A stretch of DNA of 64,000 nt from Escherichia coli (GCF_003018255.1 NZ_CP027440.1); one strand, 5' to 3'; shown: positions 11,731 to 51,293, counted from the first letter of the stretch. Notes: generated from the sequence alone by a model not told the origin. Numbers and translations: made by a program.

Positions 11731-11739
11731 GTAACAGTG

Positions 11740-11822
11740 CCGGATGCGGCGTGAACGCCTTATCCGGCCTACATGTCGCACGAACCAGGTAGGCCCGATA
11801 AGCGCAGCGCATCGGGCAATCT
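11740..11822. repeat. REP elements between ascB and hycI
   Basis: GCCGGATGCGGCGTGAACGCCTTATCCGGCCTAC and inverted partner GTAGGCCCGATAAGCGCAGCGCATCGGGCA. Confidence 0.85.
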
Positions 11823-11887
11823 GGCGTTTGCTATCAGTTCTGATTCCCTCATCAAGAACATCCCTGTCCTGATTCCTTACTGAAAAA

Positions 11888-14076: not shown

Positions 14077-15786
14077 TTATTTCAGCGGCGAGTTTTTACG
14101 CTCAATGCTGTAACGCTCGAGTTCTTTGTACGGCACCACTTTGCTCTTCTTCTTACGCACATCGACCACGGTCATGCGGTCGGTACAGGAGTAGCAAGGG
14201 TCCAGGCTACCGATAATCAGCGGCGCATCGGAAACGGTGTTGCCGCGCAGCATGTAGCGCAGGGTCGGCCAGTTCGCGTAGGTCGCGGCACGGCAGCGCC
14301 AGCGGTACAGCTTCTGGTTGTCGCCGGTCATGCTCCAGTGGATATCGTCGCCGCGCGGCGCTTCGGCAAAGCCCAGCGCAAAACGGTGCGGAATGTAGGT
14401 AAAACCTTCTACCATCAACGGACCGCCCGGCAGGTTATCCAGACCGTAGTCGATCATGTTCAGCGCGGTATAGACCTCGTTGATTCGCACTTTCAGACGG
14501 GAAATAACGTCGCAGCCCTGCTCGCTGTGGACTTCCATTGGCAGCAGGCCATAACCGACAAACGGGTGATCGGCGCGAGTATCGCGGGCGTGACCGCTGG
14601 CGCGAACCATCGGGCCAACGTTACTGAAATCGCGGGCGATTTCCGGGTCCAGACGACCAATGCCGACGGTGCGCTGTTCCATGTTCGGTGTGCTCAGCAG
14701 CACATCCACCAGCTCCTGCACTTCACGACGCATCTGTTGTGCCAGATGGCGGGTCTGGATCATGTCGTCTTTCAGCAGATCGCGACGAATCCCGCCGATC
14801 AGGTTCAGGCCGTAGGTTTTACGTGCACCGGTAAGGATCTCTGCCATTTTCATGGAGGTTTCACGCACGCGGAAGAACTGCATAAAGCCGGAGTCGAAGC
14901 CGGTAAAGTGACAGGCGAGGCCGAGATTGAGCAGATGCGAGTGCAGGCGTTCCACCTCCAACAGAATGGCGCGGATCATCTGCGCACGTTCTGGCACCTG
15001 AATACCCATCGCGTTTTCCACCGACGTGGTGTAGGCGGTGCTGTGAGCAAAGCCGCAGATCCCGCACACACGGTCAGAGAGGAAGGTCACTTCGTTGTAA
15101 CCCATACGGGTTTCCGCCAGTTTTTCCATGCCGCGATGGACGTAGAACAGGCGGTAGTCGGCGTCGATAATGTTTTCACCATCGACAAACAGACGGAAGT
15201 GACCCGGTTCGTCAGAAGTGACGTGCAGGGGACCAATCGGCACGACGTTGTTTTTCTTGTCGCCCAGTTCGTTGATGAACTCGTAGGTTTCAGCATCGGT
15301 AGTCGGTGCCGGACGCTGACGATAATCCATGCTGTCTTTACGCAGAGGATAAAGTTCATCCGGCCAGTCATCCGGCAGCACCAGACGGCGTTCATCCGGC
15401 AGACCAACCGGAATCAAACCGTACATATCGCGCACTTCACGCTCGCCCCACACTGCCGCCGGAACGCGCGGCGTCACGGAAGGATACTCCGGTTTGTTGG
15501 CGTCAACTTCGACGCGCACCGTTACCCAACACTTAGTCCCCTTCTCCATCGACAGCACGTAATAAACGGCGTAATGACCATTCAGTTTGCGTTCGTCGTT
15601 ACCAAACAGCACCGACAGCCAGCCCCCCTGCTTGTAGTAGAGAAACTCCACCACTTCCGGCAGGTAGTTCACCTTCACGGTCACGGTCAGCTGATCTTTG
15701 GTCTGCCAGGCGTGGTCCAGCACGACGCCCGGAAATGCCTCATTCAGCGCGGCGAGATAATGTTGACCTAATTTTTCTTCAGACAT
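14077..15786 (-). CDS. hycE: Hydrogenase 3 [NiFe] large subunit
   Basis: ORF track frame 576 aa, start placed at MSEEKLGQHY (569 aa); N-terminal RxCGxC and C-terminal DPCxSCxDR nickel-binding motifs (DPCYSCTDR). Confidence 0.96.
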   Translation of the reverse strand: MSEEKLGQHYLAALNEAFPGVVLDHAWQTKDQLTVTVKVNYLPEVVEFLYYKQGGWLSVLFGNDERKLNGHYAVYYVLSMEKGTKCWVTVRVEVDANKPEYPSVTPRVPAAVWGEREVRDMYGLIPVGLPDERRLVLPDDWPDELYPLRKDSMDYRQRPAPTTDAETYEFINELGDKKNNVVPIGPLHVTSDEPGHFRLFVDGENIIDADYRLFYVHRGMEKLAETRMGYNEVTFLSDRVCGICGFAHSTAYTTSVENAMGIQVPERAQMIRAILLEVERLHSHLLNLGLACHFTGFDSGFMQFFRVRETSMKMAEILTGARKTYGLNLIGGIRRDLLKDDMIQTRHLAQQMRREVQELVDVLLSTPNMEQRTVGIGRLDPEIARDFSNVGPMVRASGHARDTRADHPFVGYGLLPMEVHSEQGCDVISRLKVRINEVYTALNMIDYGLDNLPGGPLMVEGFTYIPHRFALGFAEAPRGDDIHWSMTGDNQKLYRWRCRAATYANWPTLRYMLRGNTVSDAPLIIGSLDPCYSCTDRMTVVDVRKKKSKVVPYKELERYSIERKNSPLK

Positions 15787-15803
15787 GCTCAAACTCTCTT
15801 TAA

Positions 15804-16727
15804 TCACGCCGCCAGCAAGGAGACGAACGCTAAAAATGCAAAGCCAAAACCAGCCCAGGTAATGCGTGGAGTAATATCAAGACGCAAACGGGCCATGCTG
15901 TTTTCGAACAGCGCGATAACCAGTACGCCGACCACCAGTTTGACGATGGCAATCACCAGCGCCAGCAGCAGCCCACCGACGGTGAAGGTTTCCATTTGTC
16001 CCCACGGAATAAACACCCCGACGAACATCTGCAACACCACCAGCTGTTTCAGGCTGATGCCCCATTTCATGACGCCAAAGCCGCTGCCGCTATACTCAGA
16101 GAGCGGACCTTCCTGCAACTCCTGCTCGGCTTCCGCCAGGTCGAACGGCAGTTTGCCCATTTCGATAAAAGTGGCGAACGCACAGGCACAAAGCGCCAGC
16201 ACCAGCGGGATGCTCTGGCTCAGTGGCCAGTGATAAACGGTGTCGGTGATGTTGCTGATGTTGGTGGAACCGGCAACCTGTGCGGCGACCCACAGACCAA
16301 GCAGCAGCATCGGTTCAACCAACACGCCAAGCATCGCTTCACGGCTCGCGCCGATAGCGGTAAACGGGCTACCAGTATCCAGACCAGAAATGGCAAAGAA
16401 GAAACGCGCGATGGCGAAGAGATACAGTAAGGTGATCAAATCGCCCAGTTGCGGCAGCGGAGAGCCGACGGTCACCACCGGCAGCGCAGTGGCGATAGTC
16501 AGCATGACGCCCACCATCACATACGGCGTCAGGCGGAACACCCAGCCGGAGGCATCCGGGCCAACGCTCTGACGCCCCAGCAGTTTGATAATGTCGCGAT
16601 ACTCCTGCAACACGCCCGGCCCACGACGGTTATGCAAGCGGGCGCGCGCTACGCGGGTAATACCGGAGAGCAGCGGCGCAACGGCAAATAACACCAGCGC
16701 CTGAATTAACGGATATAAAACACTCAT
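15804..16727 (-). CDS. hycD: Formate hydrogenlyase membrane subunit (NuoH-like)
   Basis: ORF track 307 aa, hydrophobic multi-pass protein in hyc operon position. Confidence 0.94.
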   Translation of the reverse strand: MSVLYPLIQALVLFAVAPLLSGITRVARARLHNRRGPGVLQEYRDIIKLLGRQSVGPDASGWVFRLTPYVMVGVMLTIATALPVVTVGSPLPQLGDLITLLYLFAIARFFFAISGLDTGSPFTAIGASREAMLGVLVEPMLLLGLWVAAQVAGSTNISNITDTVYHWPLSQSIPLVLALCACAFATFIEMGKLPFDLAEAEQELQEGPLSEYSGSGFGVMKWGISLKQLVVLQMFVGVFIPWGQMETFTVGGLLLALVIAIVKLVVGVLVIALFENSMARLRLDITPRITWAGFGFAFLAFVSLLAA

Positions 16728-23652: not shown

Positions 23653-25731
23653 ATGTCATATACACCGATGAGTGATCTCGGACAGCAAGGGTTGTTCGAC
23701 ATCACTCGGACACTATTGCAGCAGCCCGATCTGGCCTCGCTGTGTGAGGCTCTTTCGCAACTGGTAAAGCGTTCTGCGCTCGCCGACAACGCGGCTATTG
23801 TGTTGTGGCAAGCGCAGACTCAACGTGCGTCTTATTACGCATCGCGTGAAAAAGACACCCCCATTAAATATGAAGACGAAACTGTTCTGGCACACGGTCC
23901 GGTACGCAGCATTTTGTCGCGCCCTGATACGCTGCATTGCAGTTACGAAGAATTTTGTGAAACCTGGCCGCAGCTGGCCACAGGTGGGCTATACCCCAAA
24001 TTTGGTCACTATTGCCTGATGCCACTGGCGGCGGAAGGGCATATTTTTGGTGGCTGTGAATTTATTCGTCATGACGATCGCCCCTGGAGCGAAAAAGAGT
24101 TCAATCGTCTGCAAACATTTACGCAGATCGTTTCTGTCGTCACCGAACAAATCCAGAGCCGCGTCGTTAACAATGTCGACTATGAGTTGTTATGCCGGGA
24201 ACGCGATAACTTCCGCATCCTGGTCGCCATCACTAACGCGGTGCTTTCCCGCCTGGATATGGACGAACTGGTCAGCGAAGTCGCCAAAGAAATCCACTAC
24301 TACTTCGACATTGACGATATCAGCATCGTCTTACGCAGCCACCGTAAAAACAAACTCAACATCTACTCCACTCACTATCTTGATAAACAGCATCCCGCTC
24401 ACGAACAGAGCGAAGTCGATGAAGCCGGAACCCTCACCGAACGCGTCTTCAAAAGTAAAGAGATGCTGTTGATTAATCTCCACGAGCGGGACGATTTAGC
24501 CCCCTATGAACGCATGTTGTTCAACACCTGGGGCAACCAGATTCAAACCTTGTGCCTGTTACCGCTGATGTCTGGCGACACCATGCTGGGCGTGCTAAAA
24601 CTGGCGCAATGCGAAGAGAAAGTCTTTACCACTACCAATCTGAGCTTACTGCGCCAGATTGCCGAACGTGTGGCAATCGCTGTCGATAACGCCCTCGCCT
24701 ATCAGGAAATTCATCGTCTGAAAGAACGGCTGGTTGATGAAAACCTCGCCCTGACCGAGCAGCTCAACAATGTTGATAGTGAATTTGGCGAGATTATTGG
24801 CCGCAGCGAAGCCATGTACAGCGTACTTAAACAAGTGGAAATGGTGGCGCAAAGTGACAGTACCGTTCTGATCCTCGGTGAAACTGGTACAGGTAAAGAG
24901 CTGATTGCCCGCGCGATCCATAATCTCAGTGGGCGTAATAATCGCCGTATGGTCAAAATGAACTGCGCGGCGATGCCTGCCGGATTGCTGGAAAGCGATC
25001 TATTTGGTCATGAGCGTGGGGCTTTTACCGGTGCCAGCGCTCAGCGCATTGGTCGTTTTGAACTGGCGGATAAAAGCTCACTATTCCTCGATGAAGTGGG
25101 CGATATGCCGCTGGAGTTACAGCCGAAGTTGCTGCGTGTATTACAGGAACAGGAGTTTGAACGTCTCGGCAGCAACAAAATCATTCAGACGGACGTACGT
25201 TTAATTGCCGCGACTAACCGCGATCTGAAAAAAATGGTCGCCGACCGAGAGTTCCGTAGCGATCTCTATTACCGTCTGAACGTATTCCCGATCCACCTGC
25301 CGCCACTACGCGAGCGTCCGGAAGATATTCCGCTGCTGGCGAAAGCCTTTACCTTCAAAATTGCCCGTCGTCTGGGGCGCAATATCGACAGCATTCCTGC
25401 CGAGACGCTGCGCATCCTGAGCAACATGGAATGGCCGGGCAACGTGCGTGAGCTGGAAAACGTCATTGAGCGCGCGGTATTGCTAACACGCGGCAACGTG
25501 CTGCAGCTGTCATTGCCAGATATTGCTTTACCAGAACCTGAAACGCCGCCTGCCGCAACGGTTGTCGCCCAGGAGGGCGAAGATGAATATCAGTTGATTG
25601 TTCGCGTGCTGAAAGAAACAAACGGCGTGGTTGCCGGGCCTAAAGGCGCTGCGCAACGTCTGGGGCTGAAACGCACGACTCTGCTGTCACGGATGAAGCG
25701 ACTGGGAATTGATAAATCGGCATTGATTTAA
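23653..25731 (+). CDS. fhlA: Formate hydrogenlyase transcriptional activator FhlA (sigma54-dependent)
   Basis: ORF track frame 704 aa; start placed at MSYTPMSDLGQQG (692 aa); GAF-type N-terminal region, AAA+ GETGTGKE and GAFTGA motifs, C-terminal HTH. Confidence 0.95.
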   Translation: MSYTPMSDLGQQGLFDITRTLLQQPDLASLCEALSQLVKRSALADNAAIVLWQAQTQRASYYASREKDTPIKYEDETVLAHGPVRSILSRPDTLHCSYEEFCETWPQLATGGLYPKFGHYCLMPLAAEGHIFGGCEFIRHDDRPWSEKEFNRLQTFTQIVSVVTEQIQSRVVNNVDYELLCRERDNFRILVAITNAVLSRLDMDELVSEVAKEIHYYFDIDDISIVLRSHRKNKLNIYSTHYLDKQHPAHEQSEVDEAGTLTERVFKSKEMLLINLHERDDLAPYERMLFNTWGNQIQTLCLLPLMSGDTMLGVLKLAQCEEKVFTTTNLSLLRQIAERVAIAVDNALAYQEIHRLKERLVDENLALTEQLNNVDSEFGEIIGRSEAMYSVLKQVEMVAQSDSTVLILGETGTGKELIARAIHNLSGRNNRRMVKMNCAAMPAGLLESDLFGHERGAFTGASAQRIGRFELADKSSLFLDEVGDMPLELQPKLLRVLQEQEFERLGSNKIIQTDVRLIAATNRDLKKMVADREFRSDLYYRLNVFPIHLPPLRERPEDIPLLAKAFTFKIARRLGRNIDSIPAETLRILSNMEWPGNVRELENVIERAVLLTRGNVLQLSLPDIALPEPETPPAATVVAQEGEDEYQLIVRVLKETNGVVAGPKGAAQRLGLKRTTLLSRMKRLGIDKSALI

Positions 25732-25775
25732 CAGATGTGGTTATACTCGATCAACATTCAATGAAAGGAGGCAGT

Positions 25776-26204
25776 ATGGCAGTTTCAGCAAGAAATCAAT
25801 TAACCGGAACAGTTAGCACAGTAGCAATGGGCGCTGTGAATGATGAAGTAGAACTGACGCTGGCAGGTGGTGCAAAGCTGGTGGCAATTGTGACTCACAG
25901 CAGCCAGCAAGCGCTGGGTCTGGCGAAAGGGAAAGAAGCGATTGCCCTGATTAAAGCCCCGTGGGTCACGCTGGCAACGGAAGACTGTGGACTGAAATTC
26001 TCTGCTCGCAACCAGTTTGCTGGCAGCGTGTCGACAATCACCGAAGGCGCAGTGAACGCCACTGTCCATATCAAAACGGATGCGGGTTTTGAAATTGTGG
26101 CAGTGGTAACAAATGAAAGTCAGGATGAAATGAAACTCACCACTGGCTCGCGCGTTATTGCATTGATCAAAGCATCAGCCATCCTGATTGCCACCAAAGC
26201 GTAA
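25776..26204 (+). CDS. Small di-Mop (tandem TOBE-domain) molybdate/tungstate-binding protein (molbindin)
   Basis: ORF track frame 25737..26204; start placed at ATG 25776 preceded by AAAGGAGG; two tandem ~70-aa repeats each beginning SARNQ(L/F)xG..S and ending ALIKA (MAVSARNQLTGTVS...ALIKAPWV / FSARNQFAGSVS...ALIKASAI). Confidence 0.75.
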   Translation: MAVSARNQLTGTVSTVAMGAVNDEVELTLAGGAKLVAIVTHSSQQALGLAKGKEAIALIKAPWVTLATEDCGLKFSARNQFAGSVSTITEGAVNATVHIKTDAGFEIVAVVTNESQDEMKLTTGSRVIALIKASAILIATKA

Positions 26205-26215
26205 ACGCCTTATTT

Positions 26216-26250
26216 GCCGGAGAGTATGGCTCTCCGGCAGATTTATTTCT
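26216..26250 (+). terminator. Rho-independent terminator after the di-Mop gene (convergent with ygbA)
   Basis: GCCGGAGAG-TATGG-CTCTCCGGC hairpin followed by AGATTTATTTCTTT. Confidence 0.65.
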
Positions 26251-26587
26251 TTGGACGATATTTTTCTGGCAACTCCGGCACCGGACGCTTGTCATCGATG
26301 AGATGACGCACGGTTAAGATCGGATGACGCCACAGCATTCTCGGCCCGGCCCAACGCATAATCTGTTTCATCTCTTCACGCTTTGCAGGCTGGTAACAGT
26401 GCACCGGACACTGCTTACAGGCTGGTTTCTCTTCACCGAACACACATTTATCCAGCCGCTTTTGCGCGTAAGCAAACAACGCCTCGTAATGCTCCGGCTC
26501 TGCTGACGCCTGCGGGCATTTCGCTTGATAAAGATCGATCATTTTTTTAATCGTCAGTTTTTCACGAGAGATACGCTTGCCGGACAT
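26243..26587 (-). CDS. ygbA: Nitrous oxide-stimulated promoter family protein YgbA
   Basis: ORF track 114 aa; Cys-rich small protein (CPQ...CKQCPVHCYQ); position between fhlA region and mutS, divergent from mutS. Confidence 0.88.
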   Translation of the reverse strand: MSGKRISREKLTIKKMIDLYQAKCPQASAEPEHYEALFAYAQKRLDKCVFGEEKPACKQCPVHCYQPAKREEMKQIMRWAGPRMLWRHPILTVRHLIDDKRPVPELPEKYRPKK

Positions 26588-26604
26588 GCTGCCTCCATAC
26601 TCTT

Positions 26605-26627
26605 AAGGTGCATTTATATTACAACTT
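26605..26627. promoter_or_regulatory. NsrR-like operator (imperfect 11-1-11 inverted repeat) in the ygbA promoter region
   Basis: AAGGTGCATTTATATTACAACTT lies 18-40 nt upstream of the ygbA start codon; resembles the NsrR consensus as I recall it (AAGATGCATTT-N-AAATGCATCTT). Confidence 0.55.
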
Positions 26628-26872
26628 AATTTTAAAGGGGACTATGGCTCTGAAGGAGGAGGTTTCTTCAACCGACGAATTTGGCGATCTTGTTTCATCG
26701 TCATCACGCAAAAGCTGCAAAGCAGCATTTTTCGCGGAACCGACATCAAGAACTCACCTTTCGCGTCTTCCCCTGAAATGATTAACTCCGGTATCATGTG
26801 CGCCTTATGTGATTACAACGAAAATAAAAACCATCACACTACATTTAACATCAGGGAGCCGGACTTAACCCC

Positions 26873-29434
26873 ATGAGAACAATAGAAAATTTCGACGCCC
26901 ATACGCCTATGATGCAGCAGTATCTCAAGCTGAAAGCCCAGCATCCCGAGATCCTGCTGTTTTACCGGATGGGCGACTTTTATGAACTGTTTTATGACGA
27001 CGCAAAACGGGCGTCGCAACTGCTGGATATTTCACTGACCAAACGCGGTGCTTCAGCGGGAGAGCCAATCCCGATGGCGGGGATTCCCTACCATGCGGTG
27101 GAAAACTACCTCGCCAAACTGGTGAATCAGGGCGAATCGGTTGCTATTTGTGAACAGATTGGCGATCCGGCGACCAGCAAAGGGCCGGTCGAGCGCAAAG
27201 TTGTCCGTATCGTTACGCCGGGCACCATCAGCGATGAAGCGCTGTTGCAGGAACGTCAGGACAACCTGCTGGCGGCTATCTGGCAGGACAGCAAGGGGTT
27301 CGGCTACGCCACGCTGGATATCAGCTCCGGGCGTTTTCGCCTGAGCGAACCGGCGGACCGCGAAACGATGGCGGCAGAACTGCAACGTACGAATCCAGCG
27401 GAATTACTGTATGCGGAAGATTTCGCCGAGATGTCGCTGATTGAAGGTCGCCGCGGCCTGCGTCGTCGCCCGCTGTGGGAGTTTGAAATCGACACCGCTC
27501 GCCAGCAATTGAACCTGCAATTTGGCACCCGAGATCTGGTCGGTTTTGGTGTGGAGAACGCACCACGCGGACTTTGTGCTGCCGGTTGTCTGTTGCAGTA
27601 TGCGAAAGATACCCAACGCACGACCCTGCCGCATATTCGTTCTATCACTATGGAACGTCAGCAGGACAGCATCATTATGGATGCCGCGACGCGTCGTAAC
27701 CTGGAAATTACTCAGAACCTGGCCGGCGGTGCGGAAAATACGCTGGCTTCAGTGCTCGACTGTACTGTAACGCCGATGGGTAGTCGTATGCTGAAACGCT
27801 GGCTGCATATGCCAGTGCGCGATACCCGCGTGTTGCTTGAGCGCCAGCAAACTATTGGCGCATTGCAGGATTTCACCGCCGAGCTGCAGCCGGTACTGCG
27901 TCAGGTCGGCGACCTGGAACGTATTCTGGCGCGTCTGGCTTTACGAACTGCTCGTCCACGCGATCTGGCCCGTATGCGTCACGCTTTCCAGCAACTGCCG
28001 GAGCTGCGCGCGCAACTGGAAGGTGTCGATAGCGCCCCGGTACAAGCACTGCGTGAGAAGATGGGCGAGTTTGCCGAACTGCGCGACCTGCTGGAGCGAG
28101 CAATCATCGACACGCCGCCGGTGCTGGTACGCGACGGTGGTGTTATTGCGACTGGTTATAACGAAGAACTGGATGAATGGCGCGCGCTGGCTGACGGCGC
28201 GACCGATTATCTGGAGCGTCTGGAAGTCCGCGAGCGTGAACGTACTGGCCTGGACACCCTGAAAGTCGGCTTTAACGCGGTTCATGGTTATTACATTCAG
28301 ATCAGCCGTGGACAAAGCCATCTGGCACCCATCAATTACATGCGTCGCCAGACGCTGAAAAACGCCGAGCGCTACATTATTCCAGAGCTAAAAGAGTACG
28401 AAGACAAAGTTCTCACTTCAAAAGGCAAAGCACTGGCACTGGAAAAACAGCTTTATGAAGAGTTGTTCGACCTGCTGTTGCCGCATCTGGAAGCGTTGCA
28501 ACAGAGCGCGAGCGCGCTGGCGGAACTCGACGTGCTGGTGAACCTGGCGGAACGGGCCTATACGCTGAACTACACCTGCCCGACCTTTATTGATAAACCG
28601 GGTATTCGCATCACCGAAGGCCGCCATCCGGTGGTTGAACAGGTGCTGAATGAGCCGTTTATCGCCAACCCGCTGAACCTGTCGCCGCAGCGTCGCATGT
28701 TGATCATTACCGGTCCGAATATGGGCGGTAAAAGTACCTATATGCGCCAGACCGCACTGATTGCGCTGATGGCCTACATCGGCAGCTATGTACCGGCACA
28801 AAAAGTCGAGATTGGACCTATCGATCGCATCTTTACCCGCGTAGGGGCAGCGGATGATCTGGCATCCGGGCGTTCAACCTTTATGGTGGAAATGACCGAA
28901 ACCGCCAATATTTTACATAACGCCACCGAGTACAGTCTGGTGCTGATGGATGAGATTGGGCGTGGAACGTCCACTTACGATGGTCTGTCGCTGGCGTGGG
29001 CGTGCGCGGAAAATCTGGCGAATAAGATTAAAGCGTTGACGTTGTTTGCTACCCACTATTTCGAGCTGACCCAGTTACCGGAGAAAATGGAAGGCGTCGC
29101 CAACGTGCATCTCGATGCACTGGAGCACGGCGACACCATTGCCTTTATGCACAGCGTGCAGGATGGCGCAGCGAGCAAAAGCTACGGCCTGGCGGTTGCA
29201 GCTCTGGCCGGCGTGCCAAAAGAGGTTATTAAGCGCGCACGGCAAAAACTGCGTGAGCTGGAAAGCATTTCGCCGAACGCCGCCGCTACGCAAGTGGATG
29301 GTACGCAAATGTCTTTGCTGTCAGTGCCAGAAGAAACGTCGCCTGCGGTCGAAGCACTGGAAAATCTCGACCCGGATTCACTGACTCCGCGTCAGGCGCT
29401 GGAGTGGATTTATCGCTTGAAGAGTCTGGTGTAA
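26873..29434 (+). CDS. mutS: DNA mismatch repair protein MutS
   Basis: ORF track 853 aa; Walker [10 protein letters not shown], conserved mismatch-binding N-terminus (GDFYELF). Confidence 0.97.
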
Positions 29435-36530: not shown

Positions 36531-37958
36531 TTATTGACGTGCGGCCAGCATAGCGGTCAGTTTTTCAGCCCAGGCTTTGGTTTCCGGTAAGTCCACCACC
36601 GGCTGGCTGTAGTGACCACGGTTGTCCGGGGCGACAGGCGTGGTGGCGTCGATAATCAGCTTGTCGGTGATCCCCGCCGGACTTGAGCCAGGGTCGAGTT
36701 CCAGCACGGACATATTCGGCAACTGTACCAAATCCCCTGCCGGGTTCACTTTCGAGGAGAGCGCCCACATCACCTGCGGCAGGTTGAACGGATCAACGTC
36801 TTCATCGACCATAATCACCATCTTCACGTAGCCCAGACCGTGCGGCGTGGTCATCGCACGCAGGCCCACCGCGCGGGCAAAGCCGCCGTAGCGTTTTTTG
36901 GTGGAGATAATCGCCAGCAGGCCGTGGGTGTACATGGCGTTTACCGCCTGCACTTCCGGGAACTCGGCTTTCAGTTGTTGATACAGCGGCACGCAGGTGG
37001 CAGGCCCCATCAGGTAGTCGATTTCGGTCCACGGCATACCAAGATAGAGCGATTCGAAAATCGGTTTGGTACGGTAAGAGACTTTATCGATACGCACCAC
37101 GGTCATGTTACGCCCGCCGGAGTAGTGGCCGGTAAACTCACCGAACGGCCCTTCAATCTCACGTTTACGACTTTCGATAACCCCTTCGAGGATCACTTCC
37201 GAGCCCCACGGCACATCAAAACCGGTCAGCGGGGCGGTGGCGATCGGGTACGGGCTTTCGCGCAGCGCGCCTGCCATTTCGTACTCAGACTGATCGTATT
37301 TCAGCGGCGTGGCCCCCATTAGGGTGATGATCGGATCGTTACCGAGTGTGATGGCAATCGGCAGATCTTCACCGCGCTCTTCTGCTTTATGCAGATGCAG
37401 GGCGATATCGTGCATCGGCACCGGTTGCAGGCCGAGCTTACGCTTGCCCTTCACTTCCATGCGGTAGATGCCGACGTTCTGCTTGCCGAAGTTATCCGGG
37501 TCGAGCGGATCGCGGGAAACCACGCACGCTTTATCGAGATAGAAACCGCCATCACCGTCGTTTAAACGAAACAGCGGCAGAATATTGAACAGGTTGATCT
37601 CGTCGCCATCGACGGTGTTCTGCGCCCAGGCTGGATTGGCGCGGCGCTCCGGGGCAATGGGGAAGTTATCCCAGCGGCGGATAAACTCATCAATCTGTTT
37701 TTTAACCGGGGTGTTTGGCGGCAGGCCGAGGGAAATCGCGTGGTTCTGCCAGGAACCGATGGTGTTCATTGCCACGCGGGCATCGATAAAGCCGCGAATA
37801 TTATCAAACCAAAGCGCGGGCGCGCCGTCGCCGATACGCCCGGTGGCGTTGGCTGCGGCTGCCAGATCCGGTTCCGCGTTCACCTCTTCGCTGATTTTCA
37901 GTAACTGGCCGTGGTCATCAAGCGCCTGTAAAAAGCTGCGTAAATCATCAAATGCCAT
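36531..37958 (-). CDS. ecdC: UbiD-family (prenylated-FMN-dependent) decarboxylase, subunit C of hydroxyarylic acid decarboxylase
   Basis: ORF track 475 aa; UbiD-family length and layout; between UbiX-like gene and small D subunit. Confidence 0.88.
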   Translation of the reverse strand: MAFDDLRSFLQALDDHGQLLKISEEVNAEPDLAAAANATGRIGDGAPALWFDNIRGFIDARVAMNTIGSWQNHAISLGLPPNTPVKKQIDEFIRRWDNFPIAPERRANPAWAQNTVDGDEINLFNILPLFRLNDGDGGFYLDKACVVSRDPLDPDNFGKQNVGIYRMEVKGKRKLGLQPVPMHDIALHLHKAEERGEDLPIAITLGNDPIITLMGATPLKYDQSEYEMAGALRESPYPIATAPLTGFDVPWGSEVILEGVIESRKREIEGPFGEFTGHYSGGRNMTVVRIDKVSYRTKPIFESLYLGMPWTEIDYLMGPATCVPLYQQLKAEFPEVQAVNAMYTHGLLAIISTKKRYGGFARAVGLRAMTTPHGLGYVKMVIMVDEDVDPFNLPQVMWALSSKVNPAGDLVQLPNMSVLELDPGSSPAGITDKLIIDATTPVAPDNRGHYSQPVVDLPETKAWAEKLTAMLAARQ

Positions 37959-38551
37959 TATTCATTCTCCTGAGAAAAATTCCGGGCCTGCGGCAATCCT
38001 TGCCAGCGCCTGGCGTGAGGATGTTCGAGGCCAAATTGATCCAGCACGCGGGCTACCACGTGGTGGACAATGTCATCTACCGTTTCGGGATGGTTATAAA
38101 AGGCAGGCATCGGCGGCACCATCGCCACGCCCATGCGCGAAAGTGCGAGCATATTTTCGAGATGGATTGTGCTAAGCGGCATTTCACGCGGCACCAGCAC
38201 CAGTTTGCGGCCTTCTTTGAGCACGACGTCCGCCGCGCGCCCCACCAGGCCATCGGCGTAACCAGCGCGGATACCGGCGAGCGTTTTCATACTGCATGGA
38301 ATAACGATCATGCCGTCGGTACGAAAGGAGCCGGAAGAGATAGTCGCCGCCTGATCCGCCGGGTTATGGCTGAAGTCTGCGAGGGCGGCAACATCGCGAG
38401 CGCTGTAAGGCGTTTCCAGTTCAATCGTGATTTTCGCCCACTTCGACATCACTAGATGAGTCTCGACATTCGGCATCTCCCGCAGCGCTTGCAGTAATGC
38501 CACACCAAGAGGCGCACCGGTAGCCCCTGTCATCCCGACGATCAGTTTCAT
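37958..38551 (-). CDS. ecdB: UbiX-like flavin prenyltransferase (Pad1-type), subunit B
   Basis: ORF track 197 aa; MKLIVGMTGATGA flavoprotein N-terminus typical of UbiX/Pad1. Confidence 0.9.
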   Translation of the reverse strand: MKLIVGMTGATGAPLGVALLQALREMPNVETHLVMSKWAKITIELETPYSARDVAALADFSHNPADQAATISSGSFRTDGMIVIPCSMKTLAGIRAGYADGLVGRAADVVLKEGRKLVLVPREMPLSTIHLENMLALSRMGVAMVPPMPAFYNHPETVDDIVHHVVARVLDQFGLEHPHARRWQGLPQARNFSQENE

Positions 38552-38697
38552 TGCTTACTCTCTTAATTGTTCGTATACGAACGTTATTATTAACATACTC
38601 CTTCATTTCCACAGCGGCAAGGATTGAAAAGTAACAACATCTTCTTCGTCACTGAAAAACCGCTATGATAGCGACAGAGAATTAGCCCGGAGTTTAC

Positions 38698-39105
38698 ATG
38701 GCGTTACGAAATAAAGCGTTCCATCAGTTACGACAGCTTTTTCAGCAGCATACAGCTCGCTGGCAGCACGAGTTACCTGACCTGACCAAACCACAGTACG
38801 CGGTGATGCGCGCCATTGCTGATAAGCCTGGTATCGAACAGGTGGCACTGATAGAAGCAGCAGTCAGCACCAAAGCAACGCTGGCAGAAATGTTGGCAAG
38901 AATGGAAAATCGTGGCTTAGTCAGACGTGAACATGACGCCGCTGACAAGCGGCGACGCTTTGTCTGGCTGACTGCCGAAGGAGAAAAGGTACTTGCTGCG
39001 GCGATCCCCATTGGTGACAGTGTGGATGAGGAATTTTTGGGGCGTTTGAGTGCAGAAGAGCAGGAGCTGTTTATGCAGTTGGTGCGCAAGATGATGAGCA
39101 AATAG
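38698..39105 (+). CDS. MarR/SlyA-family transcriptional regulator
   Basis: ORF track 135 aa; winged-helix region (LTKPQYAVMRAIADKPGIEQVAL ... RREHDAADKRR); divergent from the decarboxylase operon. Confidence 0.82.
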   Translation: MALRNKAFHQLRQLFQQHTARWQHELPDLTKPQYAVMRAIADKPGIEQVALIEAAVSTKATLAEMLARMENRGLVRREHDAADKRRRFVWLTAEGEKVLAAAIPIGDSVDEEFLGRLSAEEQELFMQLVRKMMSK

Positions 39106-50333: not shown

Positions 50334-50365
50334 TAAGTGATATCCATCATCGCATCCAGTGCGCC

Positions 50366-51188
50366 CGGTTTATCCCCGCTGACGCGGGGAACACACATGA
50401 ATGTCGGTTCAGACCGTGTTTTTACCCGGTTTATCCCCGCTGGCGCGGGGAACACGAGGCTGAACAGGGAGGGGGCTACCGGCACAGCGGTTTATCCCCG
50501 CTGGCGCGGGGAACACTTGCCAACCGCCAAAGACTGGAAAACCAATCTCGGTTTATCCCCGCTGGCGCGGGGAACACTTAAACTTGCCGCCGGTATGGGG
50601 GGAACGGGCCGGTTTATCCCCGCTGGCGCGGGGAACTCGTTTCGCGTCGATCGCCTTTTGCGCAATCGCGCCGGTTTATCCCCGCTGGCGCGGGGAACTC
50701 TTTCTTTTTCCATTTAAGTTATTCTAATACCCCGGTTTATCCCCGCTGGCGCGGGGAACTCGATCATGCCTTACTAAAAGGTCCGCTGACGGGCGGTTTA
50801 TCCCCGCTGGCGCGGGGAACTCATCATGACAAAAAGTTACGCTCATCTATTCAACGGTTTATCCCCGCTGGCGCGGGGAACTCTCCATATGTTGCCCCGC
50901 TCGGGACAACACCCCCGGTTTATCCCCGCTGGCGCGGGGAACTCTTAGCGCCGACAAAAGAAGTTGCGGATAACAGCGGTTTATCCCCGCTGGCGCGGGG
51001 AACTCGCCCGTTCCCAGGGAGTGCGGCTCCACCCCCGCGGTTTATCCCCGCTGACGCGGGGAACTCTTCAGTTTCACACTCGGTAATGCCGTTATTTACG
51101 GTTTATCCCCGCTGGCGCGGGGAACTCCTCGGGGCCAGCCTCCCCCATTAACCCGGCACCGGTTTATCCCCGCTGGCGCGGGGAACTC
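50366..51188 (-). CRISPR. Type I-E CRISPR array, 14 direct repeats of 29 bp (plus-strand form CGGTTTATCCCCGCTGGCGCGGGGAACTC) separated by 13 spacers of 32-33 bp; transcribed on the minus strand from the leader at 51189-51293
   Basis: Repeats located by eye at 50366, 50427, 50488, 50549, 50610, 50672, 50733, 50794, 50855, 50916, 50977, 51038, 51099, 51160 (61-62 bp period); repeat is reverse complement of the I-E repeat GAGTTCCCCGCGCCAGCGGGGATAAACCG; adjacent cas2-cas1. Confidence 0.97.
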
Positions 51189-51293
51189 TCTAAAAGTATA
51201 CATTTGTTCTTAAAGCATTTTTTCCCATAAAAACAACCCACCAACCTTAATGTAACATTTCCTTATTATTAAAGATCAGCTAATTCTTTGTTT
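51189..51293 (-). promoter_or_regulatory. CRISPR leader (AT-rich) between last repeat and cas2 stop
   Basis: About 105 bp AT-rich sequence (..AAAGTATACATTTGTTCTTAAAGCATTTTTTCCCATAAAAACAACC..) directly abutting repeat 14, located at the cas2-proximal end. Confidence 0.85.

Follow-up and report, generated by a model that had tools for sequence, protein, structure and literature searches.

The 64,000-nt stretch of Escherichia coli DNA analysed here (the window) carries a small gene, mop, between fhlA and ygbA. The first-pass annotation had described a 142-aa open reading frame with a good ribosome-binding site at this position. This reading frame was recovered, with its ATG at 25776, a stop codon that ends at 26204 and the Shine-Dalgarno sequence AAGGAGG upstream. 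The two neighbours that had been named were also supported by Pfam, which recognised on the upstream side a sigma-54 activator that carries a GAF and an HTH_8 domain and a member of the YgbA_NO family on the downstream side. The interval originally reported, 25732-26242, is the entire fhlA-ygbA gap, and consists of a leader, the gene and a terminator. The features of the locus are as follows.

23653-25731, plus strand: fhlA, the upstream neighbour (Pfam Sigma54_activat, GAF and HTH_8; 99% identity to K-12-type FhlA)
25732-25775, plus strand: fhlA-mop spacer of 44 nt
25742-25747, plus strand: TATACT, a -10-like hexamer, 34 nt before the ATG
25765-25771, plus strand: Shine-Dalgarno sequence AAGGAGG, read directly from the sequence, with the ATG 4 nt further on
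25776-26204, plus strand: coding sequence of a di-Mop (ModG-type) molbindin of 142 aa, stop codon included (open reading frame, two matches to Pfam TOBE, two matches to TIGR00638 Mop, match to ModG 1h9j)
25776-25988, plus strand: Mop/TOBE domain 1, aa 1-71, with ligand positions S4, R6, A20-V21-N22, T40 and K60-A61
25989-26201, plus strand: Mop/TOBE domain 2, aa 72-142, with ligand positions S76, R78, A92-V93-N94, T112 and K132-A133
26212-26242, plus strand: intrinsic terminator from the terminator scan, a 14-bp stem followed by TTATTTCTTT, between the convergent genes mop and ygbA
26243-26587, minus strand: ygbA, convergent and downstream, 114 aa (Pfam YgbA_NO)

A RefSeq record that is 100% identical at the locus lists the product as WP_001561928.1, 'TOBE domain-containing protein'. 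The (A)GGAGG motif ahead of mop is kept at nearly all orthologous loci. A scan of both strands of 25400-26950 against Rfam gave no match at E<=1, and antisense open reading frames across the mop region were dismissed as unconserved by-products.

The terminator scan found no terminator-like site in the spacer between fhlA and mop of the window. In contrast, mop is followed by a strong terminator, whose hairpin folds at -25.4 kcal/mol (z = -4.46), a value reached by none of 200 shuffled sequences. The short spacer without a terminator and the strong terminator after mop argue for read-through from fhlA, and in the simplest reading the hyp-fhlA unit would end with mop as its last cistron. The K-12 unit has an FhlA- and formate-dependent sigma-54 promoter before hypA and an FNR-dependent internal promoter. 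Among 13 fhlA-linked loci with a measured spacer, 10 fall at 38-56 nt. The spacer extends to 74-104 nt in Citrobacter amalonaticus (L011), Enterobacter soli (L032) and Lelliottia (L033), and in Lelliottia a hairpin lies between fhlA and mop.

A promoter scan of the fhlA-mop spacer found no canonical sigma-70 promoter and no -35 element. The hexamer TATACT is possibly a weak promoter dedicated to mop; the pattern TATA[AC][ACT] recurs exactly at -34 in 14 loci, comprising the window and loci from Escherichia, Citrobacter, Pseudocitrobacter and Pluralibacter-like genomes.

In Azotobacter vinelandii, modG is controlled by ModE via a TATAT-N7-TAYAT operator, and we therefore searched for a ModE operator at mop. 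Upstream of mop, matches to TATAT-N7-TAYAT and to the modA operator pattern were no better than in shuffled sequences. The best match upstream of mop in the window had 3 mismatches, and the mean over 40 orthologous upstream regions was 2.98 mismatches versus 3.22 in shuffles, whereas the modA operator, used as a control, gave 0 mismatches. A sequence that resembles the left half-site, GTTATAC, is present upstream of mop.

Several other features of the window and its relatives were recorded. At 50361-51191, between iap and cysH, lies a type I-E CRISPR array whose 14 repeats (CGGTTTATCCCCGCTGGCGCGGGGAAC) have a 61-nt period. Its spacer set is common to no complete E. coli genome, and the best match reaches 81% over the array. 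In matching records cas2e is annotated beside the array, and the cas genes of the window presumably extend up to about 60000. The gap between hycI and ascB is 157 nt long in the window (11731-11887), whereas an ST80 genome (L052 20397-21642) and strain IAI1 (L062 7409-8654) carry two extra genes here, encoding a 251-aa hypothetical protein and a 139-aa HTH protein. We regard this gap as the site of a second small presence/absence polymorphism, which borders the hyc operon. Across the fhlA-ygbA region the window and the ST80 genome are 100% identical, whereas they differ in the rest of the window. The ST80 record annotates hycE as frameshifted (L052 16454-18165), in contrast to an intact open reading frame of 576 aa in the window (14077-15807). 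Furthermore, PGAP labels the formate hydrogenlyase activator 'flhA' or 'FlhA' in every non-K-12 E. coli record seen (L001, L002, L062, L064). The slip is systematic, and the symbol clashes with that of flhA, a gene of flagellar export.

Protein family and ligand residues

The tandem Mop/TOBE repeats proposed in the first-pass annotation were borne out by profile searches. Both the Pfam family PF03459 (TOBE; 117 bits versus a cut-off of 22.3, E=3.7e-34) and the NCBIfam family TIGR00638 (Mop; 142 bits versus a cut-off of 55, E=4.1e-42) matched the protein over two stretches. The two halves share 31 of 70 residues (44%) at an offset of 72 residues, and SARNQ...GAVN...VT..S...ALIKA is present in each of them.

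The best match was ModG of A. vinelandii (PDB 1h9j), with E=1.7e-32 over residues 1-140 and a gap-free alignment in which 67 of 140 residues are identical (48%). ModE of E. coli ranked second with its di-Mop domain (E about 4e-15), ahead of the single-domain Mop/Tub proteins. An AF2 model of the monomer, calculated with a 20-sequence alignment as input, had a mean pLDDT of 96. It superposed on ModG 1h9j with a TM score of 0.95 and an rmsd of 1.3 A over 142 columns, and on the di-Mop part of ModE with TM scores of 0.83-0.90 (0.88-0.90 when only entries with bound molybdate or tungstate are counted). The length of exactly 142 aa is the same in every one of the 45 orthologues. The full-length match to ModG and this uniform length place the domain call far beyond chance.

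Three other assignments were considered and rejected. The protein has no N-terminal winged helix as in the ModE transcription factor, and the ModE profile NF007957 matched only at profile positions 124-261 of 263, with 87 bits versus a cut-off of 369. Profiles of ModC/WtpC ATPases with a C-terminal TOBE domain matched only in their last ~70 positions, far below the cut-offs. Finally, the chains of single-domain Mop/Tub hexamers each contain a single TOBE domain of about 70 aa, versus two here. Since the protein has no DNA-binding or ATPase domain, and its matches to the ModE and ModC profiles are confined to the TOBE parts and lie below the cut-offs, we classify it from its sequence as a ModG-type di-Mop molbindin, and neither as ModE nor as a transporter subunit.

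Like Mop, ModG (PDB 1H9J/1H9K/1H9M) is a chain of about 140 aa made up solely of two fused Mop domains, and its type-1 and type-2 ligand motifs are retained in both domains of Mop. The genetic settings differ. The mop gene follows fhlA and has no detectable ModE operator upstream, whereas modG is part of the modEABC transport cluster of a nitrogen fixer. The di-Mop part of ModE (PDB 1H9R/1H9S, 1O7L, 1B9M), a paralogue in the same genome, has the same tandem-TOBE fold and 32-35% identity, but ModE has an N-terminal DNA-binding domain that is missing from Mop. Each half of Mop also aligns with MopII of Clostridium pasteurianum (1GUG), Mop of Sporomusa (1FR3) and Tub of Eubacterium limosum (9BEB), with E values of 2e-9 to 3e-5. 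Identity to Tub is about 40%, and the ligand positions S4, R6, A20-V21-N22, S/T40 and K60-A61 are equivalent. In these single-domain proteins of 67-78 aa the cage is a hexamer; by analogy, with two domains fused, three chains instead of six would build the cage of Mop.

In Tub, the type-1 (axial) site is formed by the backbone of A20-V21-N22 and the type-2 (interface) site by S4, R6, S40 and K60-A61, and these tungstate/molybdate ligands are stated to match those of ModG, Mop and ModE (PMC11980592). All named ligand positions of Tub and ModG were found in both domains of the Mop protein described here, and they are invariant in 44-45 of the 45 orthologues. In contrast, the SARN, GAVN, T and K ligands are gone from the second Mop domain of ModE, while our protein retains them like ModG. 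Lerminiaux et al. (2020) reported a 'modE' between fhlA and ygbA, which they treated as an insertion at a hotspot (PMC7232297). This label is a misnomer for mop, because the Mop protein is without a DNA-binding domain and the second domain of ModE is without the ligands that are kept here.

Mop/TOBE sites take either molybdate or tungstate, and structures of Tub, MopII and ModE exist with each. Shao et al. (2025) divided W/Mo storage in gut microbes into three types, of which the ModG/TudG architecture is one, and proposed that versions of the ModG architecture in these microbes bind W (PMC11980592). Mop might thus be chiefly a tungstate binder like TudG, which would either sequester tungstate entering via ModABC, and so shield the molybdoenzymes in the gut, or supply a tungstoenzyme. 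However, the scheme of Shao et al. predicts a role in W where TupA or a tungsten oxidoreductase is present, and a preference for Mo or W is not separable by sequence alone. We regard a chiefly tungstate-binding function as rather improbable.

Conservation across the Enterobacteriaceae

We scanned synteny with one genome per species. The gene order hypD-hypE-fhlA-mop was found at more than 30 species-level loci from about ten genera. Taxa in which mop follows fhlA include E. albertii, a cryptic Escherichia clade, Citrobacter, Pseudocitrobacter, Klebsiella/Raoultella, Kluyvera, Pluralibacter, Yokenella, Enterobacter, Lelliottia and Kosakonia. Across these fhlA-linked taxa the identity of the Mop protein is 80-98%, in step with the adjacent genes. 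Estimates of dN/dS against orthologues are 0.03-0.12 (0.03-0.09 within Escherichia), and mop evolves under strong purifying selection. The dS value to E. albertii, 0.37, is in the range expected between species. The GC content of mop (50.6%) resembles that of fhlA and ygbA (50-52%), and we saw no repeats or mobility genes flanking mop at the window locus. The conserved fhlA-mop synteny, the low dN/dS and the flank-like GC content indicate that mop is ancestral in the Enterobacteriaceae.

Other loci retain mop without its usual neighbour. In Phytobacter, mop directly follows hypE and there is no fhlA. One of these loci (L047) has a perfect palindrome, CTATACCCAT-N9-ATGGGTATAG, about 60-100 nt upstream of mop, which is a possible operator or hairpin; two other Phytobacter loci (L035, L040) are each one base off this palindrome. 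In Raoultella sp. BIGb0138, the last ~50 nt of fhlA remain (L014 5950-6000) and mop is intact, while PTS and 6-phospho-beta-glucosidase genes replace the hyc/hyp/fhlA region. This layout implies that mop was kept after the formate hydrogenlyase genes were lost. Similarly, fhlA is wholly missing from one Enterobacter strain that has kept mop, and in Serratia, Cedecea and Edwardsiella mop is sited without hyp, fhlA or ygbA nearby. Salmonella enterica copies (L054 6001-6429, L055 4025-4453) are 88% identical and lie away from fhlA, in a different island. An IS21 IstB fragment lies alongside the copy in L055, and a gene pair encoding a YedY/MsrP-like molybdoenzyme (Oxidored_molyb) and a cytochrome b is found about 1 kb (L055) to 3 kb (L054) from mop.

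Presence and absence within Escherichia coli

Within E. coli, mop is carried by 1,889 of the 5,426 complete genomes, while its flanks were matched in 5,420. Hence, about 65% of the complete genomes are without the gene. In total, 1,892 genomes contain any part of it, and in 1,889 of these at least 80% of the 511-bp query region is covered. The RefSeq annotation of mop in all 1,889 genomes is either 'TOBE domain-containing protein' or 'molybdopterin-binding protein'.

That the gene might be a decaying, functionless relic in E. coli would agree with its dispensability in 65% of the genomes. It is at odds with the nearly complete coverage in 1,889 of the 1,892 carriers, the full length of 45 out of 45 orthologues, the dN/dS of 0.03-0.09 in Escherichia, the invariant ligand residues, and the strong ribosome-binding site and terminator. 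We consider decay extremely improbable.

The first-pass annotation had described K-12 as having no annotated gene at this position, and this proved correct: in MG1655, fhlA (b2731) is followed by ygbA (b2732) without an intervening gene, at a distance of 36 nt. The gene is also absent from IAI1 and from one O157:H7 strain, and present in SMS-3-5, ATCC 25922, ATCC 11775, APEC O1 and PCN033. Judged from the phylogroups of these individually checked reference strains, mop appears to be present in B2, D and F and absent from A, B1 and E.

The gene c3292 of CFT073 is the same gene as mop of the window. Ewers et al. (2014) listed c3292 as a 'putative molybdenum-pterin-binding protein', and used it as a size marker only; the fhlA-mutS amplicon is 1,673 bp long in CFT073 versus 1,208 bp in MG1655 and EDL933, and the long amplicon was tied exclusively to 'pattern III' of phylogroup B2 (PMC4209514). 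The window strain is of 'pattern IV', yet it carries mop, which contradicts this exclusive association. SMS-3-5, which is not a B2 strain, also carries mop. The pattern IV region of the window, adjoining rpoS at 36531-39105, contains genes for UbiD-like (475 aa) and UbiX-like (197 aa) hydroxyarylic-acid decarboxylase proteins, with a MarR/SlyA-like regulator. Such a UbiD/UbiX-like set beside rpoS is the 'pattern IV' mutS-rpoS polymorphism of Ewers et al. (PMC4209514).

Pairwise alignment of alleles with and without mop delimited the following segment.

25730-26203, no strand assigned: segment of about 474 bp missing from K-12-type E. coli, with boundaries ambiguous by 3-4 nt

The ambiguity arises because both ends read TAA(A)C, at the stop codon of fhlA and at that of mop. 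We aligned the mop-less junctions of a K-12-like strain, Z1323CEC0019 and 357900, and read that of O157:H7 directly. The junction, fhlA-TAA-C joined to TGCAAATTGCC, is identical in the three aligned strains, which have differing flank haplotypes, and the O157:H7 junction is identical to these three. Every sampled mop-less match spans 734 bp. Furthermore, the C-terminus of YgbA is altered in the same way in all the mop-less alleles examined, with a length of 117 aa versus 114 aa in the window.

The first-pass annotation had regarded mop as a strain-variable addition. The variability stands, with 1,889 carriers in 5,426 genomes. In contrast, synteny, purifying selection, flank-like GC content and one junction among the sampled gene-less strains argue against an addition, and imply that K-12 lost mop. 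Thus, the gene appears to have been removed once, in the lineage that includes K-12, the B1 strains and O157:H7, and to be ancestral yet dispensable.

A recently acquired, strain-specific accessory gene beside the formate hydrogenlyase regulon, as envisaged in that annotation, would also vary in presence within E. coli. The fhlA-mutS interval is a known island hotspot (PMC7232297), and the Salmonella copies occur in a different, IS-associated context. However, mop occupies the same position in E. albertii, cryptic Escherichia, Citrobacter, Klebsiella and Kluyvera, and its divergence tracks that of its neighbours. It also has flank-like GC content, no flanking repeats or mobility genes, and one shared mop-less junction. 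We consider recent acquisition refuted by the fhlA-mop synteny, and give it a very small residual probability.

The sequence next to the junction shows a further difference between the two alleles. When 26205-26270 of the window is compared with 3230-3300 of L001, a non-K-12 E. coli record, ~60 bp past the junction are strongly diverged, whereas the flanks are 94-97% identical. The final codons of ygbA fall within the diverged stretch, as does the terminator hairpin. The hairpin stems of the two alleles differ by compensatory changes (GGAGAG/CTCTCC versus GGACAG/CTGTCC), and the K-12 form of the hairpin resembles that of Citrobacter amalonaticus (L011). The event that removed mop may have been a replacement instead of a simple deletion.

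Proposed function and implications

The reading that we favour, and consider probable, is that Mop is a cytoplasmic molybdate/tungstate buffer of the ModG type, encoded by the last cistron of hyp-fhlA, ancestral, and lost once in the K-12-type lineage. We infer its oligomeric state, oxyanion binding, co-transcription with fhlA and physiological role as follows. Like ModG of A. vinelandii, Mop would assemble as a trimer (a pseudo-hexamer), and the trimer would bind up to eight molybdate or tungstate oxyanions. Two of the eight sites would lie on the three-fold axis and be formed by backbone amides of GAVN, while the other six would lie at the subunit interfaces, where the SARN, VT..S and IKA motifs would contribute Ser, Arg, Thr and Lys-Ala. 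Synthesis of Mop would accompany that of the hydrogenase-maturation proteins and FhlA, when formate and anaerobiosis turn on the formate hydrogenlyase regulon. During fermentative growth Mop would then serve as a high-affinity intracellular buffer or store of molybdate. The buffered molybdate would be available to cofactor synthesis for the molybdo-selenoenzyme FDH-H and for other molybdoenzymes. In addition, Mop may compete with ModE for free molybdate, which would shift the set-point of modABC, moa and hyc.

The part that ModG plays in Mo homeostasis has been summarised (PMC11980592). Our search of the literature on the enterobacterial Mop protein yielded two passing mentions (PMC4209514, PMC7232297) and no study of its function.

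A connection between Mop and the supply of molybdate for formate hydrogenlyase is plausible. It is supported by the conserved adjacency to fhlA and by the probable co-transcription with fhlA. The connection is not obligatory, because mop is kept in genomes without fhlA and in other contexts, and because K-12, like about 65% of E. coli, manages without mop and still controls hyc by molybdate.

Mop could also act as a regulatory partner instead of a passive store, and signal molybdate status directly to hyc/fdhF or to the cofactor pathway, either in mixed oligomers with the di-Mop part of ModE or by contact with FhlA or with MoeA/MogA, which insert the cofactor. The two proteins share a fold and 33-35% identity, the dimer interface of the ModE di-Mop part forms molybdate sites, and mop is tightly conserved beside the gene of the formate hydrogenlyase activator. 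Interactions between Mop and ModE-like regulators have been reported in Rhodobacter capsulatus, and K-12 genetics left a molybdate-dependent factor for hyc expression unidentified. However, molybdate-dependent control of hyc operates in K-12 without mop and, since the gene is absent from K-12, Mop cannot be this missing factor. Moreover, a closed trimer of the ModG type with all eight sites would have no obvious free interface, mop persists in genomes that lack fhlA, and we found no literature on interactions of the enterobacterial protein. A role as a regulatory partner therefore seems unlikely to us, and the buffer function remains our preferred reading.

A further and stronger proposal is that Mop is an active part of formate hydrogenlyase control in most Enterobacteriaceae, where, encoded at the end of a hyp-fhlA operon that FhlA autoregulates, it would set the free molybdate or tungstate available to ModE, MoeA and FDH-H. 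We put this forward as a long shot.

The gene has already been annotated and mentioned in print, and its family is structurally well understood. Our analysis adds the polarity of the polymorphism, in which an ancestral gene was lost once, and shows how widely mop is syntenic with fhlA, that its ligand residues are fully conserved and that it also occurs outside pattern III. Apart from the status of K-12 as a deletion variant, mop is an ordinary and correctly recognised member of a well-understood family.

To our knowledge, K-12 was the strain used in all classical work on how molybdate controls the genes hyc, fdhF, moa and modABC. Our results imply that K-12 is a deletion variant without a conserved molybdate-binding protein that is encoded behind fhlA. 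If Mop buffers molybdate or tungstate, then the molybdenum economy, H2 and formate metabolism at low molybdate, and the response to treatment with tungstate may be different from those of K-12 in the extraintestinal-pathogenic lineages B2, D and F, as well as in most other enterobacteria. Tungstate serves as an experimental suppressor of enterobacterial blooms in the inflamed gut. If Mop were active in the control of formate hydrogenlyase, H2 production would have a different molybdate threshold in the lineages that carry it (B2, D and F E. coli, Citrobacter and Klebsiella) than in K-12-type strains, and sensitivity to tungstate would differ as well. The textbook molybdate regulation of K-12 would then be a derived, simplified circuit.
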